A stretch of 50,698 nucleotides of DNA from an uncultured archaeon (GTDB lineage: Archaea; Thermoplasmatota; Penumbrarchaeia; JASLWR01). The DNA lies in assembly GCA_964342815.1 (NCBI GenBank), contig CAYFHS010000024.1:1-50698 (forward strand), written 5' to 3'. Below, in pieces: positions 607 through 50,698 of this stretch. The translations under genes and the position numbers were made by a program. Each line of letters begins with the position of its first letter. Positions within the stretch are counted from its first letter, which is position 1. The notes beneath the pieces were generated by a model, which worked only from the letters and a program-made list of their open reading frames with translations, had not been told where the DNA came from and made no database searches.

Positions 607-2151
607 CTATTCGATAATAGTAATACTTTTTCCACCATGCTGGCTCTTTCTAACCCTAATATTCGCATAGATGGGGATCTCGATGTTGGCCCCAACAACC
701 AATGCCTGTCCTACGGGCAATCTCTGAATCTCGTTTGCCGCTCTCGTGGTAAGTCCTTCCACAGATGTTATTATTGCTTTCAGATCATTGGGATTGGTAA
801 CCCTGAGGATAATTTGAGTATTACATTGACTCAGAATATTCTTGTCTATTCGGGCGGGTCTCTGGGTAACGATGCAGAGACCAAGGCCGAATTTCCGTCC
901 TTCCGAGGCCACGGACATCAGGACATCCGAGGAAATCACCGTCCTCTTTTGCGGGCAGTAATTGTGGGCTTCTTCAACGATCACTATAACCGGTGGTATG
1001 GTGTCCAGTTTTCTCTTCTGGAAAATGGAACCTATCAAAAGAGATACCGCCAACTCCTGTATATGAGGCTTTATACCTTTCATATTTATTACGGAACACT
1101 GCCCCTTTTTCACGATCTCGGAGAGCGGAATGGGATTTTCTGAAAAGAGTCCATGGGAATCCAATCGCTCCACTGCATTGATAACGTTCCACTTGGCATT
1201 GTTCCGATCCAGTTCCGCCTGAAATATAATATCTTTAATCGTGTAATATTCGGTGCTGCCGGATAAAATTCGGATCGCCTTGTGAAGAACCCCGAGCTGG
1301 CTACCGGTCCGTTTAAGACCGCTGAGCTTTATGATCTCATCCACATCGAGATTCATACCCGAGAATGAAAGGGGAACAGATCCCGGAGCGTTTTCGCTGT
1401 CGATGGAATATTCCGTAATGCTGGAAGCATATCCTCGAGGTGCTATCCCGAAATCATTCATATATTTGATATCGCTGTAGTTAAGATTCGGCTGTATGAG
1501 TGATGAATATTCGCCGTGGGGATCGATTATCACTATAGGAATCTCTTTTTCCAGCAATTCCTCTATCAGAACGCCTACAACGTAGGATTTCCCGCTACCG
1601 GTTCTGGCAATTACGGAAATATGCTTTTGGACCATTTCGTTGATATCGAGACATATCTTCAGATCATGCCCTTTTAGTAAACCCATATATGCACCGGTCT
1701 CACTGGACGCATGGAGGCCTACCACGGATTTGATAAAATCGTTTTCGGCGAGGTAGATTGTCTTTCCCGCCATGAGAGGCGTGGTTGGCATCTGTAGAAC
1801 GTTTCGTTTGTCGCGGAATCCAAGAATGGCCACGGTTGCAGAAACGTTTCCACGGTCAGCATCATCCTGTATTTTCCGGTAATTGACCGAATATTCATCT
1901 GCACTCTCTTTATTACTAAATAGATTTCTAGCTTCCAGGAACGTAAGATCGGTTTGCCGCTCAATGGCCGTTACGTGTCCAAGTATCCATCCGAAAATAT
2001 CATGTTTCGCCTTGACAAAAGTACCTTTCGCGACCTTTTCAGCCTGCACCGCGAAACGGAATTCATCGCTGGTGACGTTACCGTAGATTATTCCCAGAGA
2101 TGTCTCGGAAAGGGACTTTGGAACTATTGCTGCGGCGGCCGTTCGGTCCAT
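607..2151 (-). CDS. herA: HerA/FtsK-family ATPase (DUF87) with N-terminal HAS-barrel
   Basis: Walker A ARTGSGKS, IIDPHGEY, Walker B IVEEAH, EGRKFG and VTQRP; N-terminal barrel-like region. Confidence 0.85.
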   Translation of the reverse strand: MDRTAAAAIVPKSLSETSLGIIYGNVTSDEFRFAVQAEKVAKGTFVKAKHDIFGWILGHVTAIERQTDLTFLEARNLFSNKESADEYSVNYRKIQDDADRGNVSATVAILGFRDKRNVLQMPTTPLMAGKTIYLAENDFIKSVVGLHASSETGAYMGLLKGHDLKICLDINEMVQKHISVIARTGSGKSYVVGVLIEELLEKEIPIVIIDPHGEYSSLIQPNLNYSDIKYMNDFGIAPRGYASSITEYSIDSENAPGSVPLSFSGMNLDVDEIIKLSGLKRTGSQLGVLHKAIRILSGSTEYYTIKDIIFQAELDRNNAKWNVINAVERLDSHGLFSENPIPLSEIVKKGQCSVINMKGIKPHIQELAVSLLIGSIFQKRKLDTIPPVIVIVEEAHNYCPQKRTVISSDVLMSVASEGRKFGLGLCIVTQRPARIDKNILSQCNTQIILRVTNPNDLKAIITSVEGLTTRAANEIQRLPVGQALVVGANIEIPIYANIRVRKSQHGGKSITIIE

Positions 2152-2353
2152 AATTCTTCTATCCTTGAAATTCGTTAGATAGGTAACTTCGCTGAAATAG
2201 GTAAATCTTTCCCTTCTTGTTACTTTTTAGCTCTAATGCCCATAAGTGGCAGACAATCGAGTTGGGTGAAATACCGGCAAAAATTAAAAAGGTAGATAAA
2301 TCATCCGGGTGACCCTGTCGGACTGGTATACCGACCATATTCCCAGACACGTG

Positions 2354-2577
2354 ATGGGCCTGTTTCGAAGACAAAACTAACGTTTCACTTCTGACAGCCT
2401 CCATTTGCTCACTGCGTTCACAAATGGGCCTGTAGCGCCGTAAACCTAAACGGATCACGGCTGACAGGCAGCCATTTGCTCACTGCGTTCACAAATGGGC
2501 CTGTAGCGCCGTAAACCTAAACGGATCACGGCTGACAGGCAGCCATTTGCTCACTGCGTTCACAAATGGGCCTGTAG
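2354..2577 (+). repeat. Tandem array of 70-71 bp units (one diverged, two identical) ending in the tRNA 5' end
   Basis: ATGGGCCTGT recurs at 2354, 2424, 2495 and 2566; 2401-2471 is identical to 2472-2542. Confidence 0.95.
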
Positions 2578-2642
2578 GGTAGCTTGGTTTATCCTTGTGG
2601 CTTTGGGAGCCATAGACTCCGGTTCAAATCCGGGCAGGCCCA
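2568..2642 (+). tRNA. tRNA-Pro (anticodon TGG), intronless, CCA not encoded
   Basis: Acceptor stem GGGCCTG/CAGGCCC plus discriminator A; anticodon arm GTGGC-TTTGGGA-GCCAT; T-loop GGTTCAAATCC. Confidence 0.97.
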
Positions 2643-2667
2643 TTTACAAGCGAAGGGAGTAAATGGG
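2639..2667. repeat. Perfect 9-bp inverted repeat overlapping the tRNA 3' end
   Basis: CCCATTTAC-11 nt-GTAAATGGG. Confidence 0.85.
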
Positions 2668-2850
2668 ACTGACGAGACATTACTAGTAATACATGGATAC
2701 TATATCTTCGATTCAGCGGAATCGGTTCCTCTGGACTGCGATTCCACGAACATTGTCAAGCTGCGAAGTACGCACCATTGACAATATGCACCTGGACACC
2801 GACCTGTAAAGATGACCGCTTACAAGGTCGATAAGCTATTGATCCGTAAG

Positions 2851-2903
2851 AAATGGTTCAAGGATCGTACCTATCCCCACAAGTTCTTAAGGATTCATCA
2901 GGT
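2851..2903. repeat. Repeat family A, copy 1 (53 bp)
   Basis: 45/53 identical to 5841-5893; partial copy at 5323-5346. Confidence 0.85.
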
Positions 2904-2934
2904 ATGGACATAAAGTTAATCAATGACTACAAAT

Positions 2935-4266
2935 CTATTTTTTGATATTTTCCAATATTCTATCGACTTTATCCTCTAAAATAAATATTCTTTCTTGTGC
3001 AGATTTATTAATGCCAATAAAATAATCCCACCTATTTGTTATTATTTCTCGAATAACCTTCTCAAACACATAGTAGTAATTCATTAACATAAAATTTTTA
3101 TCTGGAAATGAATATTTAACTTTCATTTTACATTCTAAATCATAGAAATGAAGAACCTCATTCGTATCCCCCATTTCCATACGATATTTTAATAATTCTT
3201 GAAAAAAAGGTTTGTTTATCACTTCATCATATGGAATTTCACCCTTAATTTTCAATCCAGAATTTATTAAAATAAATGAAAATGTAAACGTGAAATCAGG
3301 ATTTATAAGTATTAATTTCGATTTCAGTCGCGATTGATCATATTCGATTTTTATTCTGGTATAGGGTGGTAAGAAGAAATTATTGAACTCCTTATAAAAC
3401 GCTAATGATGGCATAATATTGGATAACAAAGATTTTTTTGGAGGATGTGGGATATTCTCATTCTTCACCAATTCTCCCGTTATATTCTCCATATTATGAA
3501 CATCAATATTCTCTTCATTTAATACATTATTAATATTTACTAACCATCCATCTTTTAAGAATTTAGAGATTCCAAATAAAAAAGCATATGGTGACATTTG
3601 GATTATTAATTGTTTGATTTTATTTTCACTTATTTCATCCTTGTAATAGAAAAAGATTTTATATAGCAAATGCTCATATTCTTCTTGACATTTTGGATTC
3701 TTATATTCTAAAAGAAATCTCATCTCAGAAAATGTGAAAAATAAAATACTTCGCCAAGTAAAACATTTATCGGTCCTTCTTTCTAGGAATAACCATTGTA
3801 ATTCGTTATCAGTTACAAGTCGTTTTCCATAATCAGTCCTTATATAATAAGTCCTTTCAATAATCTCTCCATTGGACATTTTAACAAAAGCATGGGGGAT
3901 ATCTTTCTTTTTAAAAATGTTTATTATTAAAACGTTATCTCCGTTTAGCTTTAATGTCTCAAATGAAAAATCTAAAGGTGGGCTTATATTAGTCTTACAA
4001 ATATTATTTATTTGTCCTTTATATCTTTCCATATCAACTATTTTTATTCCTTCGAATTCTTTAAGGTCGGTGATTCCAATAAAAATCTTTCCTCCATTTA
4101 AATTAGCAAAAGCTATCATTTCATGAGCTAATTTCTTTTTTCCTGAAGACGTTGTAAGAATTCCCGATTCTTTGAATTCTACGGTCTTATTTTTATGTGA
4201 ATTGCTACTCAATAACTCTTGTATTTCTCCTATCGTGGTCATATGAATACTCTCCATATATACCAA
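2935..4266 (-). CDS. Schlafen/AlbA_2-domain protein with an uncharacterised C-terminal region
   Basis: VEFKES, MIAFANLNGGKIFIGITD and YYIRTDYGKR match the AlbA_2 pattern (EFK...AFAN..GG.I.IG..D...Y.R). Confidence 0.8.
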   Translation of the reverse strand: MVYMESIHMTTIGEIQELLSSNSHKNKTVEFKESGILTTSSGKKKLAHEMIAFANLNGGKIFIGITDLKEFEGIKIVDMERYKGQINNICKTNISPPLDFSFETLKLNGDNVLIINIFKKKDIPHAFVKMSNGEIIERTYYIRTDYGKRLVTDNELQWLFLERRTDKCFTWRSILFFTFSEMRFLLEYKNPKCQEEYEHLLYKIFFYYKDEISENKIKQLIIQMSPYAFLFGISKFLKDGWLVNINNVLNEENIDVHNMENITGELVKNENIPHPPKKSLLSNIMPSLAFYKEFNNFFLPPYTRIKIEYDQSRLKSKLILINPDFTFTFSFILINSGLKIKGEIPYDEVINKPFFQELLKYRMEMGDTNEVLHFYDLECKMKVKYSFPDKNFMLMNYYYVFEKVIREIITNRWDYFIGINKSAQERIFILEDKVDRILENIKK

Positions 4267-48710: not shown

Positions 48711-50698
48711 GATATCAAGGACGACAACATCTCAATAGGAGTAGGTTGGGATCAGGATAATTCGATGGATTTTCATCATTATAACATCTATATTTCAGAT
48801 CATTTCTTCAGAAATGTGACCGAGGATGGGGTTTACTTAGAGAATGACAATATCACCACGAAGAATACCGTTCAGACCCAAATTTCAACCATGAACGGAC
48901 AACCTTTGAAATTTGGAAAATCTTATTTCGTTGCTGTAACCGCCGTTGACGAGAGCGGAAACGAGAATGAAAGTGTGATCTGTTCCTATTCACAGATGTT
49001 CAAAGACGATTTCGATGAGATCCCGCCCATGTCCATAGAGAATGTTCTGGCCCAAGATACAAATGACGATAGCGGAGGTTCCATAACCGTTAGCTGGGAT
49101 CGATGCGAGGCAACGGATTTTCTACTCTATTCCGTATATGTCTCGGAAGATCCGATAAGGTCCATAAACTCACCTGTTATGGAATTGTCGGGACGTTACT
49201 ATAACAGGGATAATCTGTCGGCAGCAGTTACGAAATATGGAGATCAGGCCTTAATTGATGGTGAGACCTATTATTTTGCAGTGGTGGCCCAGGATTTCAA
49301 TGATCAGATATCAACGTTGGGAGTAACCAGTGTTTTCGGACCTGTGGAACCGGTAAACGACAACGATATGGAGGTTCCCCCGGCGGTTCGGGGCTTTAAG
49401 GTGAAGAAAACAGGTACGAATGAGACCACCCTTGAATGGACTCCTCTCTTAAAGATAAACGTACCGGATTTCCATCAATATATAGTGTTCTATTCCACCA
49501 CGACTCCAGTTGTTAAAACTACGGCGGACAGGGTTGACGGAACGACGAATGAAGAACTTTTTGATATCAAGACCTCTAGTGTCACCATTAAGGGATTGGG
49601 CAAGGAAAAGAATTATTATTTCGTGCTTCTCTGCCAGGACGACGGGATGGCTAAAAAAAATCTTGTTTCTGGTAACATATCAGGCGAAATTAATGTATTT
49701 ATTAATGTACTCGATACCGGTAAAGTGACGCCAATAAGCGGAAACATCGATGATGAATTTACTTTTCAGATTATCTTCTCCCATACCAATCCACCAAACA
49801 AACAAATAATGATAATCATCGATAACGAATCCTTTACCATGAATTATGAGATGGGTGACAACAGCACAGGTGCCACATATAAATACAAAACGGCTCTCAC
49901 GGCTGGGGAACATGTTTATTATTTTACATACGAGTCGGGAGGTGACGCTGGCAAGATAAGATATCCGAAGCAAGGGTATCTCAAGATAACGGTTGAACAG
50001 GGAGACGGTGGGACCGGTGGCGGGGGAGGACCCGGGATTGATGAGGGGGGAATTTCAACAGCTGCTATCATTATCGTCATCGTGGTCCTTTTGCTCGCAG
50101 TAGCCGGAGCGGTTATGATATTGCTTGTGATGAAGAAAAAGAAATCAATCGAAGCTAGCACAGAACCTGAAGAACAAGTATCAAGTACTGTTGAGATATG
50201 GACTTGCACTTGTGGGGATGTTAGTATTCCTATAACCGAATCTGCACACTGCGGATTCTGTGGGGAGTATCACGAACCAATTCTTGGAGAAGACGAGATC
50301 GGAGACGGCAGTTCAACAAAATACCCGGATTATTCAGCTGAAAATCTGTATGGTGATAATCACTCAGTTCAAGTTCCGTATGAATCCTCAAATGGGGACG
50401 ACTCGCCTGATTCTCATGTCATTCTCAAAGAAGAACAAAGCGCTTATGATGGAGAGGATTATAACGAAGCTGGGATAAATGCTCAAACAGTTACCATTCA
50501 GTCGAAGAAGTCGGAATCAGTAGCAGCTCCTGACGCAGAAGAGCCTCCTGTAAACATTCAAGTTCCAGAGTCCAATGGACATGGTACCGACATGGAAGAT
50601 CTTTTCTCCCTTGATAACCAACAACCGACACAACAATCGACAAAACAATCGACAAAACAATCGACAAAACAATCGACAAAACAATCGACAAAACAATC
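48711..50698 (+). CDS. In-frame continuation of the same protein (FN3 repeats, TM, zinc ribbon, acidic tail, TKQS repeats); not in the ORF track, runs off the window
   Basis: Translated by hand: no stop from 48711 to 50698; three FN3-like repeats, TM AAIIIVIVVLLLAVAGAVMILLV-MKKKK, then CTC...CGFC. Confidence 0.85.
50633..50698 (+). repeat. 12-bp tandem repeat ACAATCGACAAA, 5.5 copies visible (encodes QSTK)
   Basis: Copies at 50633, 50645, 50657, 50669 and 50681, partial at 50693. Confidence 0.95.

Follow-up and report, generated by a model that had tools for sequence, protein, structure and literature searches.

Genes for tRNA are classic landing sites of mobile DNA, and such landings are usually marked by large islands at the 3' end of the gene. 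A small structure on the 5' side of one such gene raises the question addressed here. In contig CAYFHS010000024.1, from an uncultured archaeon of the Thermoplasmatota, three short units stand in tandem directly before the gene for tRNA-Pro(UGG), and each of them begins like the tRNA itself. What are these units, and how do they come to stand in register with a tRNA gene? The window, by which we mean the whole 50,698-nt stretch of DNA that was analyzed, belongs to a metagenome-assembled genome (MAG; G000) of 4.35 Mb in 116 contigs, with 45% GC and 89% completeness. The explanation that we favor, with doubt and confidence in about equal parts, is that the array is one locus of a lineage-specific, tRNA-linked family of hairpin repeats, whose ~70-bp modules would spread by short-repeat recombination and be tolerated in the tRNA leader.

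The array before tRNA-Pro(UGG)

ARAGORN and Rfam place tRNA-Pro(UGG) on the + strand at 2567/2568-2642/2643. Reading of the sequence finds the octamer GGGCCTGT starting at 2356, 2426, 2497 and 2568, and the last of these positions is position 1 of the tRNA. Tandem Repeats Finder (TRF) reports a perfect 71-bp period of 2.5 copies with 100% matches from 2401 to 2577, to which a more distal unit is added. The tandem arrangement in register with the tRNA, first described in a reading of the window from its letters alone (the sequence-only reading), is therefore reproduced by the repeat search.

All parts of the array lie on the + strand, and we number the units from the tRNA outward. Unit u3 (2356-2403), the distal and diverged hairpin, begins with GGGCCTGT, ends in CTGACAGCCTCCA, has a fold of -12.0 kcal/mol and scores 55.8 bits with the covariance model introduced below. 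It is followed by spacer 3 (2404-2425, TTTGCTCACTGCGTTCACAAAT), which together with the flanking CCA and TGG makes a CCATTTG/CAAATGG stem. Unit u2 (2426-2474; -20.1 kcal/mol, 67.3 bits) and spacer 2 (2475-2496), of the same sequence as spacer 3, come next, and then unit u1 (2497-2545; 67.3 bits) and spacer 1 (2546-2567), the immediate 5' leader of the tRNA; the spacers were delimited by sequence and TRF. The tRNA gene itself (2568-2642; ARAGORN, and Rfam RF00005 at 54.8 bits) has no encoded CCA. Units u1 and u2 are 100% identical, which indicates that the final step in building the array was a recent tandem duplication. By BLAST, u3 is ~79% alike to them, and its inner helix reads GAAG/CTTC in place of their GCCG/CGGC, as had been read from the sequence.

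RNAfold gives the same long hairpin for every unit of the array, in agreement with the hairpins expected from the sequence, and the CCATTTG/CAAATGG spacer hairpin is likewise present as described. The fold of the 303-nt stretch of array and tRNA has z = -4.3, and its centroid structure shows each unit and the cloverleaf folded separately. An Rfam scan of positions 1800-3200 with E up to 10 returned only the tRNA, so that the units fall into no described RNA family. Neither ARAGORN nor Rfam RF00005 calls the units as tRNA, and the genuine tRNA is the sole call in the window. An open reading frame of 99 aa on the minus strand (2159-2458), which overlaps the array, gave no Pfam match, and we regard it as spurious.

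Several familiar structures were considered for the units and set aside. A C/D-box small RNA would have a C box, which is missing from the units although they contain CUGA, and a k-turn in the internal loop would need a GA that the 5' strand does not have. A bulge-helix-bulge intron, with the distal copy as the true exon 1, would require two splice sites that do not pair here. Origin of the unit from the T-arm of a tRNA was suggested by a GGTTCA resemblance and by nothing further.

A hairpin family at the ends of tRNA genes

A BLAST search of G000 with the unit found related copies on further contigs, also beside tRNAs. We aligned 17 units of this genome (alignment A1), built a covariance model from them (R1) and ran it against G000, which yielded 19 strong matches (34-71 bits). 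All 19 adjoin tRNA genes. A covariance search for homologues was the check that the sequence-only reading had proposed, and it thus recovered a family sitting at tRNA genes, to which units in three related genomes are added below. Three units each belong to tRNA-Arg-CCU and tRNA-Pro-UGG; two each to tRNA-Arg-UCU, tRNA-Ala-UGC, tRNA-Ala-CGC, tRNA-Met and tRNA-Pro-GGG; and one each to tRNA-Ala-GGC, tRNA-Pro-CGG and tRNA-Lys-CUU. The copies are restricted to tRNA ends and are not dispersed over unrelated loci, and the R1 search found no larger or autonomous element carrying the hairpin in this 89% complete genome.

The tRNAs that carry units resemble each other at their 5' ends. ARAGORN finds 44 tRNAs in G000, many of them with introns and, where inspected, without an encoded CCA, which marks the genome as archaeal. 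Units occur at 10 of the 11 tRNAs whose first eight bases differ by at most one mismatch from GGGCCYGT and at none of the 33 others (Fisher p ~4e-9, for a grouping that was chosen after the data were seen). The one member of this class without a unit is an intron-bearing Lys-UUU gene. The two units of tRNA-Pro(GGG) lie on overlapping contig ends (C11:1-83 and C57:1-122) that meet inside a unit array with its own AT-rich upstream region; this array is antisense and runs into the 3' end of the intron-containing tRNA. The repeats evidently broke the assembly at this point.

Each module of ~70 bp consists of a hairpin of 40-57 nt and a conserved CU-rich spacer of 22-30 nt. It opens with a copy of the first 8-11 nt of the adjoining tRNA, continues with a covarying inner hairpin (a lower stem of 5 bp and usually an apical stem of 4 bp), and then has CTGAC and a strand that approximately complements the copied end of the tRNA and terminates in CCC-A. 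The spacer has pairing ends (ATTRY and RYAAT), and a C-rich variant of it also occurs. An outer stem of GGGCCYGT/ACRGNCCC closes each unit as terminal inverted repeats, in which mismatches or bulges recur (C4-T, and insertions of AG or AA). The last base of the unit is always A, even beside tRNAs with discriminator G. A direct repeat of ~10-14 nt, made of the leader end and tRNA nucleotides 1-10, flanks each module; as a possible target-site duplication of a transposable element, it is indistinguishable from the tandem register.

The 5' octamer of the unit matches its own tRNA, being GGGCCTGT at Pro, Met and Ile, GGGCCCGT at Ala, Lys, Arg-UCU and Pro-CGG, GGGCGCGT at Arg-CCU and GGGCACGT at Arg-UCG. 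The inner hairpins are of a few types (GCCG, GCTG, GATG, GAAG and GTTG), each of which is found at tRNAs with different acceptor stems. The 3' strand often lags behind the 5' strand, as in CTTGCCC against GGGCGCG or, in the congeneric genome G001, ACAGGCCC against GGGCCCGT. Taken together, the tracking octamer, the shared hairpin types and the lagging 3' strand point to a 5' strand that is set locally by the tRNA and to a remainder of the module that moves between loci, and the lagging strands indicate that outer-stem pairing is only partly restored. The unit nearest the tRNA does not always match it best.

The hairpins show structural constraint. In A1, 82.5% of the cells pair; slid controls reach 26-43%. 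The two pairs at the center of the inner helix occur as CG 8/AU 5/UA 4 and as CG 6/UA 6/AU 4/UG 1, with zero unpaired cells. When 36 distinct units are taken together from the four genomes, 140 of 144 cells at the lower four pairs of the inner helix are Watson-Crick, in five or more sequence types. Much of this covariation goes back to a small number of hairpin lineages and thus reflects few independent events, perhaps five. The outer stem is the least well paired part, with Watson-Crick pairs at positions 4-6 in only ~16-24 of the 36 units. In six orthologous unit pairs between G000 and G001, substitutions amount to 10% in stems, 26% in loops and 41% in the 8-nt flanks, and two compensatory double changes are seen (AACC/GGTT to AGCC/GGCT, and G-C to A-T). 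These data support the conclusion that the hairpin structure is under selection, as had been suggested from the changed inner helix of u3. The sense strands of the 36 units contain 11 G-U against 24 A-C cells, mostly in the outer stem; since G-U is not in excess over A-C, the data do not point to one-strand RNA as the selected molecule.

Turnover among relatives and position in the leader

We searched 40 relatives with the covariance model, three of the same family as G000 and 37 of other families. The evidence is carried by four closely related MAGs, G000 to G003, which are 89-93% complete. G001 (Thermoplasmatota MAG ETNP2_MAG_1), of the same genus, has 16 model matches, 14 of which are real units. 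G002 and G003, of the same family and other genera, have three matches each and a few real units, some of them degenerate. No unit was found in the 37 genomes of other families; 36 are without a match, and the single match in the remaining one (E = 6.5e-4) overlaps a tRNA-Val gene. A pattern scan of 185,579 species genomes gave, beyond G001, chance matches in GC-rich genomes and a uniform 39-nt match in haloarchaea (L048, L050 and ~18 other loci, in genomes and plasmids). No tRNA lies beside the two of these loci that were checked, and the match is probably a conserved gene segment. A scan of metagenomes found real units on G001-like contigs only, with no new diversity, and no unit was present in the viral contigs scanned.

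Within the genus the number of units differs between species. The three upstream sense units of Pro-UGG in G000 correspond to none upstream in G001, and G000 exceeds G001 at Met (2 and 1), Arg-CCU (3 and 2) and Arg-UCU (2 and 1) and falls below it at Ala-UGC (2 and 3) and Pro-CGG (1 and 2). At Ala-CGC the distal units are orthologous and the proximal units are of different types. The leader CACGTGAT that directly precedes u3 in the window is the leader that directly precedes tRNA-Pro(UGG) in G001; because the junction of CACGTGAT with GGGCCTGT is kept in both genomes, either the three modules were inserted exactly in register or they were exactly deleted where they are missing. Several orthologous tRNAs have no unit: neither G002 nor G003 has one at Arg-CCU or Arg-UCU, and in G003 Pro-UGG and Pro-CGG are bare as well. 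The unit at tRNA-Ile is retained in two genera, and the spacer type is conserved across loci and three genera.

Units also occur in antisense. In G001 one complete antisense unit lies right after the 3' end of tRNA-Pro(UGG). At the same place in the window, the 3' trailer (2643-2673, + strand) has a spacer-like hairpin, CCCATTTAC to GTAAATGGG, followed by GGGACTGAC, a stub at 2665-2673 that equals the first nine bases of the antisense unit; BLAST with the unit gives a weak minus-strand match there (C24:2635-2666). The Pro-GGG array on C11 and C57 likewise faces the tRNA 3' end. The acceptor stem is an inverted repeat, and GGGCCTG can therefore also be read on the opposite strand at the tRNA 3' end. 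The rule that an array ends against GGGCCYG has no exception among our cases, which points to a process at the DNA level. Synteny around the window is chimeric: the upstream flank matches the tRNA-Pro locus of G001, and the flank past 2690 (compared over 2690-2830) matches the downstream flank of tRNA-Ile(GAU) in G001 (L113). The 3' strand and spacer of u1 and u2 resemble the tRNA-Ile unit of G001. Since the breakpoint coincides with the truncated antisense unit, the unit repeats may have mediated a rearrangement.

The arrays lie between conserved promoter motifs and their tRNAs, an arrangement from which we infer that they are transcribed as long 5' leaders. A BRE/TATA-like motif, CCGGCAAAAATTAAAAAGG, is found on the + strand at 2274-2292 in the window and upstream of tRNA-Pro(UGG) in all four genomes. 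It stands ~34 nt before the unit-less tRNA in G003, directly before the degenerate unit in G002 and 275 nt before the tRNA in the window, with the array in between. The same layout, conserved across genera, is seen at Arg-CCU (motif AAAACTTTAATATAATAAT) and at tRNA-Ile (a TATA-like box), and CCGGCAAAAATTAAAAAGG is likely the promoter of an array-plus-tRNA transcript. The spacers contain no AT-rich box; a promoter within each spacer was accordingly dropped, and the earlier observation that no clear TATA box lies just upstream of the tRNA holds. The genome encodes an RNase P RNA (201 bits), by which long leaders could be removed.

The neighbors of the array are a HerA-type ATPase gene (607-2151), upstream and divergent, and a gene for a Schlafen AlbA_2-domain protein (2935-4266, minus strand), convergent with the tRNA; no recombinase or integrase gene lies beside the array in the window.

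Other repeats were noted in these genomes. A second dispersed and modular repeat, ATTCAGCGGAATCGG, CGATTCCGCGAACATTGTCAAGCTG and CACCATTGACAATAT with variable hairpin inserts after the first block and a hairpin after the second, occupies 2709-2790 (+) just past tRNA-Pro and has ~25-37 more copies in G000 (for example C2:73378 (-), C5:114707 (-), C12:42218 (+) and C29:17242 (+)); copies flank tRNA-Ile in G001 (L113), and Rfam gives no match. Longer repeats of 150-250 nt, which carry the first 23-24 nt of the tRNA and a strand complementary to the D-arm, lie upstream of tRNA-Leu(CAG) (C5:73841-74170, minus strand), tRNA-Leu(AAG) (C12) and tRNA-Val(GAC) (C20) in G000; those at Leu(CAG) form a perfect 150-nt tandem, and the Leu(AAG) and Val copies share CGTTGTAACC and GGTCACAAC. 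Downstream units in the style of the tRNA-linked repeats (TLRs) of Escherichia coli, which are discussed below, end in a copy of the tRNA 3' end and oligo-T, with a core of AGGGCAAT, ATTGACCG, AACG and AGTG in that order; they occur at tRNA-Gly(CCC) (C30:48105-48200), tRNA-Leu(CAG) (C5) and tRNA-Leu(AAG) (C12) of G000 and at tRNA-Pro(CGG) of G002 (L191). Upstream of tRNA-Ala(UGC) in G003 (C100, L031) stands a longer array of a shorter unit, GGGCCCGTCGGCATATCCGTGATATGCCTAACCGCCCA plus spacer, with at least four copies and a run of N within it. At the far end of the window, TRF reports a 12-bp tandem repeat of AACAATCGACAA in 6.6 copies (50620-50698) that reaches the window end.

Competing explanations and known systems

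An assembly artefact or a chance repeat would be the simplest account of the tandem, and sequencing runs bear on it directly. The window is present in runs of marine and seawater metagenomes. Two independent samples (X3 and X4) contain the left flank, u3 and its spacer in identical form up to 2421/2422; they have no coverage of 2428-2579, from which neither an absence nor another copy number can be concluded. The identical core of u2 and u1 is covered only in a run of the possible source sample (X2), as a 95-nt cyclic piece with a depth of 12.4, between 1x and 2x of the unequal flank depths of 11.8 and 5.95. The number of identical copies is not resolvable, because these are short-read k-mer contigs and the depth in X2 is ambiguous. 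Equivalent arrays were assembled independently in G001, in Joint Genome Institute (JGI) metagenome contigs and at nine other tRNA loci of G000, and with u3 and its spacer confirmed in X3 and X4 we regard an artefact as highly improbable. The statement that the array is not merely recent slippage or an assembly duplication is thus borne out for the family by covariation and by the independently assembled arrays, and it fails for the last step, given that u1 and u2 are identical and arose by recent tandem duplication.

Two further explanations take the units to be traces of integration. Integrative plasmids or viruses that use tRNA genes as attachment sites could each have left a partial tRNA duplicate, and tRNA genes are indeed targets of archaeal integrases and casposons, which can generate tandem arrays with duplicated target segments in between (PMC5137440); the longer G000 repeats, with 23-24 nt of tRNA-Leu or tRNA-Val, would fit such scars. 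The units themselves duplicate only 8-11 nt of the tRNA, repeat at ~70 bp with no coding remnant, and have hairpins that covary, unlike decaying scars. We found neither an integrase-bearing element with a partial tRNA duplicate at its far end nor the same sequence in viral or plasmid DNA: the neighbors are the HerA and AlbA_2 genes, none of them an integrase, and viral contigs gave no match. This origin is very unlikely. Slightly less so, though still unlikely, is that the units are folded single-strand DNA cassettes, similar to integron attC or CTX-phage attP sites, which a hypothetical recombinase would insert beside the tRNA end with the outer stem rebuilding a double-stranded target. Such insertion would explain why the arrays grow at that junction, and the strictly Watson-Crick hairpin stems are those expected of a DNA hairpin. 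An outer stem that equals the target and has recurrent mismatches and bulges, insertion at either tRNA end with orientation given by GGGCCYG, and turnover at the tRNA-proximal position are consistent with it. A Y1 (HUH) transposase (PF01797) is, however, missing from G000 (89% complete; controls positive in 6 of 14 genomes), Cas1 (PF01867) is missing from all four family genomes (89-93% complete), no recombinase gene adjoins the array, the proximal unit is not consistently the best tRNA match, and the outcome is indistinguishable here from plain short-repeat recombination.

A more serious competitor, possible and yet clearly behind the favored explanation, is that the units are functional RNAs. 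They would be either acceptor-stem-like minihelices freed by RNase P at the 5' end and by tRNase Z after CCC-A, or cis-acting parts of the leader; possible roles are tuning the maturation or stability of the downstream tRNA, or presenting a decoy tRNA end to enzymes that recognize acceptor stems. Purifying selection in place (lowest divergence in stems, then loops, then flanks), the two compensatory changes and covariation all argue for this, as do a unit end that resembles acceptor stem plus discriminator whatever the discriminator of the tRNA itself, a spacer kept across three genera, a tRNA-Ile unit kept in two, and arrays downstream of conserved promoter motifs in a genome with RNase P RNA. 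It is weakened by the patchy occurrence of units in G002 and G003, by copy numbers that vary between congeners, by arrays that are antisense to their tRNA, by sense strands with no excess of G-U, by an outer "acceptor" stem that is the least well paired part, and by units that neither ARAGORN nor Rfam recognizes as resembling a tRNA; the one RNA-library contig (X20, described below) could be of either strand and may stem from DNA.

According to the favored explanation, modules of a repeat family would be gained, lost and tandemly amplified at the junction with the tRNA-gene end. Likely routes would be slippage, unequal crossing-over, and copy-choice or recombination at ectopic sites, all acting by way of the short stretch common to the modules and the GGGC-N-Y-GT class of tRNAs, together with the spacer. 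In such an event the 5' strand would be set by the local tRNA, and the inner hairpin, 3' strand and spacer would come from the donor. The array would be transcribed as a long 5' leader between promoter and tRNA, each module would fold on itself and so keep its decoy 5' strand and its anti-strand off the true acceptor stem, and RNase P would cut at tRNA +1 with the leader discarded. A module would then survive because it lies in a discarded leader and is self-folding. Selection on the hairpin may thus be for harmlessness or for continued propagation, with no need of a dedicated cellular function. Both candidates of the sequence-only reading, a tRNA-targeting miniature element and an array of acceptor-stem-like leader RNAs, stay viable; the evidence favors the former because presence differs within the genus, the location is at tRNAs only, and antisense copies lie at tRNA 3' ends.

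Several points weigh against the favored explanation. No enzyme is tied to the modules, with no Y1/HUH transposase or autonomous element found in G000 and no Cas1 in the four genomes, and recombination through 8-14 nt of identity is an assumption. Conserved stems and two compensatory changes in orthologous units that stayed in place, and the conservation of the spacer across genera, are compatible with a positive function as well. Because the four genomes are closely related, the units counted in them do not represent independent events. The sole contig from an RNA library (X20) resembles G001, covers 30 nt upstream and 82 nt downstream of the tRNA, could be of either strand, and may represent DNA carry-over, a precursor or an antisense transcript. 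We also consider, as a doubtful alternative, that the modules are an active sequence-guided element, in which a folded hairpin of DNA or RNA showing the tRNA acceptor end is inserted or copied specifically at tRNA-gene ends by a host or other enzyme, or that released minihelices mimic tRNA ends in some cellular role. In both cases this would be a form of tRNA-gene-associated genome dynamics or of tRNA mimicry for which we found no description in archaea.

The significance of the array extends beyond this locus, as a tiny non-coding module has colonized the 5' leaders of an entire tRNA class that is delimited by acceptor-stem sequence. It offers a compact natural system for the tolerance of decoy acceptor strands in archaeal pre-tRNA leaders, allows a test of minihelix release in vivo by RNase P and tRNase Z, and provides a way to study the spread of short repeats among tRNA loci. 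In practical terms, the arrays break assemblies at tRNA loci, as at the ends of C11 and C57, and they appear to mark a rearrangement breakpoint between tRNA-Pro and tRNA-Ile loci.

Among known systems, the t-elements of plant mitochondria are tRNA-like stem-loops that serve as processing signals for RNase P and RNase Z and mark the ends of mRNAs. The archaeal units are likewise acceptor-stem-like hairpins, probably within longer transcripts, and potentially cleavable by tRNA-processing enzymes, but they sit in tRNA leaders, where such cleavage is only hypothetical. MITEs (miniature inverted-repeat transposable elements) and palindromic repeats of the REP (repetitive extragenic palindrome) type, which include REP/RAYT, IS200/IS605-derived palindromic elements and the GC clusters of yeast mitochondria, share with the units a small, non-coding, palindromic and multicopy nature, a conservation of structure above sequence, a copy number that varies among close relatives and a tandem or clustered arrangement. 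The GGGCCYGT/ACRGNCCC ends of the units correspond to the terminal inverted repeats of a MITE. In contrast to these elements, the units occur only at tRNA-gene ends and have an outer stem that matches the tRNA, and G000, at 89% completeness, yielded neither dispersed copies with an autonomous transposase-bearing partner nor the Y1 transposase of REP/RAYT systems.

Polar integration of the casposon or CRISPR type also builds arrays beside a tRNA end in which the elements are separated by a duplicated target segment, and the casposon of Aciduliprofundum, another member of the Thermoplasmatota, targets tRNA-Pro (PMC5137440). The units differ from casposons in having no casposon-type terminal inverted repeats, in being 70 bp long and non-coding, and in adjoining the 5' rather than the 3' end, in a family whose four genomes gave no Cas1. 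With the defining enzymes sought and not found, MITE/REP elements and casposon-type integration are mechanistic analogies.

The closest likeness is to the TLRs of E. coli, of which 22 lie at ten loci, including the 178-bp repeats of tyrT, rtT, and rrA/rrB/rrF; each finishes in 18-19 bp that agree exactly with the 3' terminus of the tRNA or rRNA lying upstream, and the majority are without a known function (PMC8144298). Both are short repeats within tRNA or rRNA transcription units that carry a copy of the adjoining stable RNA end, with one to several per locus and about ten loci per genome. TLRs are co-transcribed and processed, and the archaeal units are probably co-transcribed as well, given that all 19 adjoin tRNAs and promoter motifs lie upstream. 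TLRs lie downstream with an 18-19-bp copy of the 3' end, whereas the archaeal units lie mostly upstream, copy the 5' 8-11 nt and end in CCCA regardless of how the tRNA finishes at its 3' end. Unlike TLRs, they have a complementary strand that closes the hairpin, and the two share neither sequence nor Rfam similarity. The copying of the other end, the position on the other side, the closing strand, the domain of life and the sequence set the units apart from membership among the TLRs. By this comparison the units, although the same in kind as the E. coli TLRs, appear to be an archaeal counterpart of them at the 5' end that has gone undescribed.

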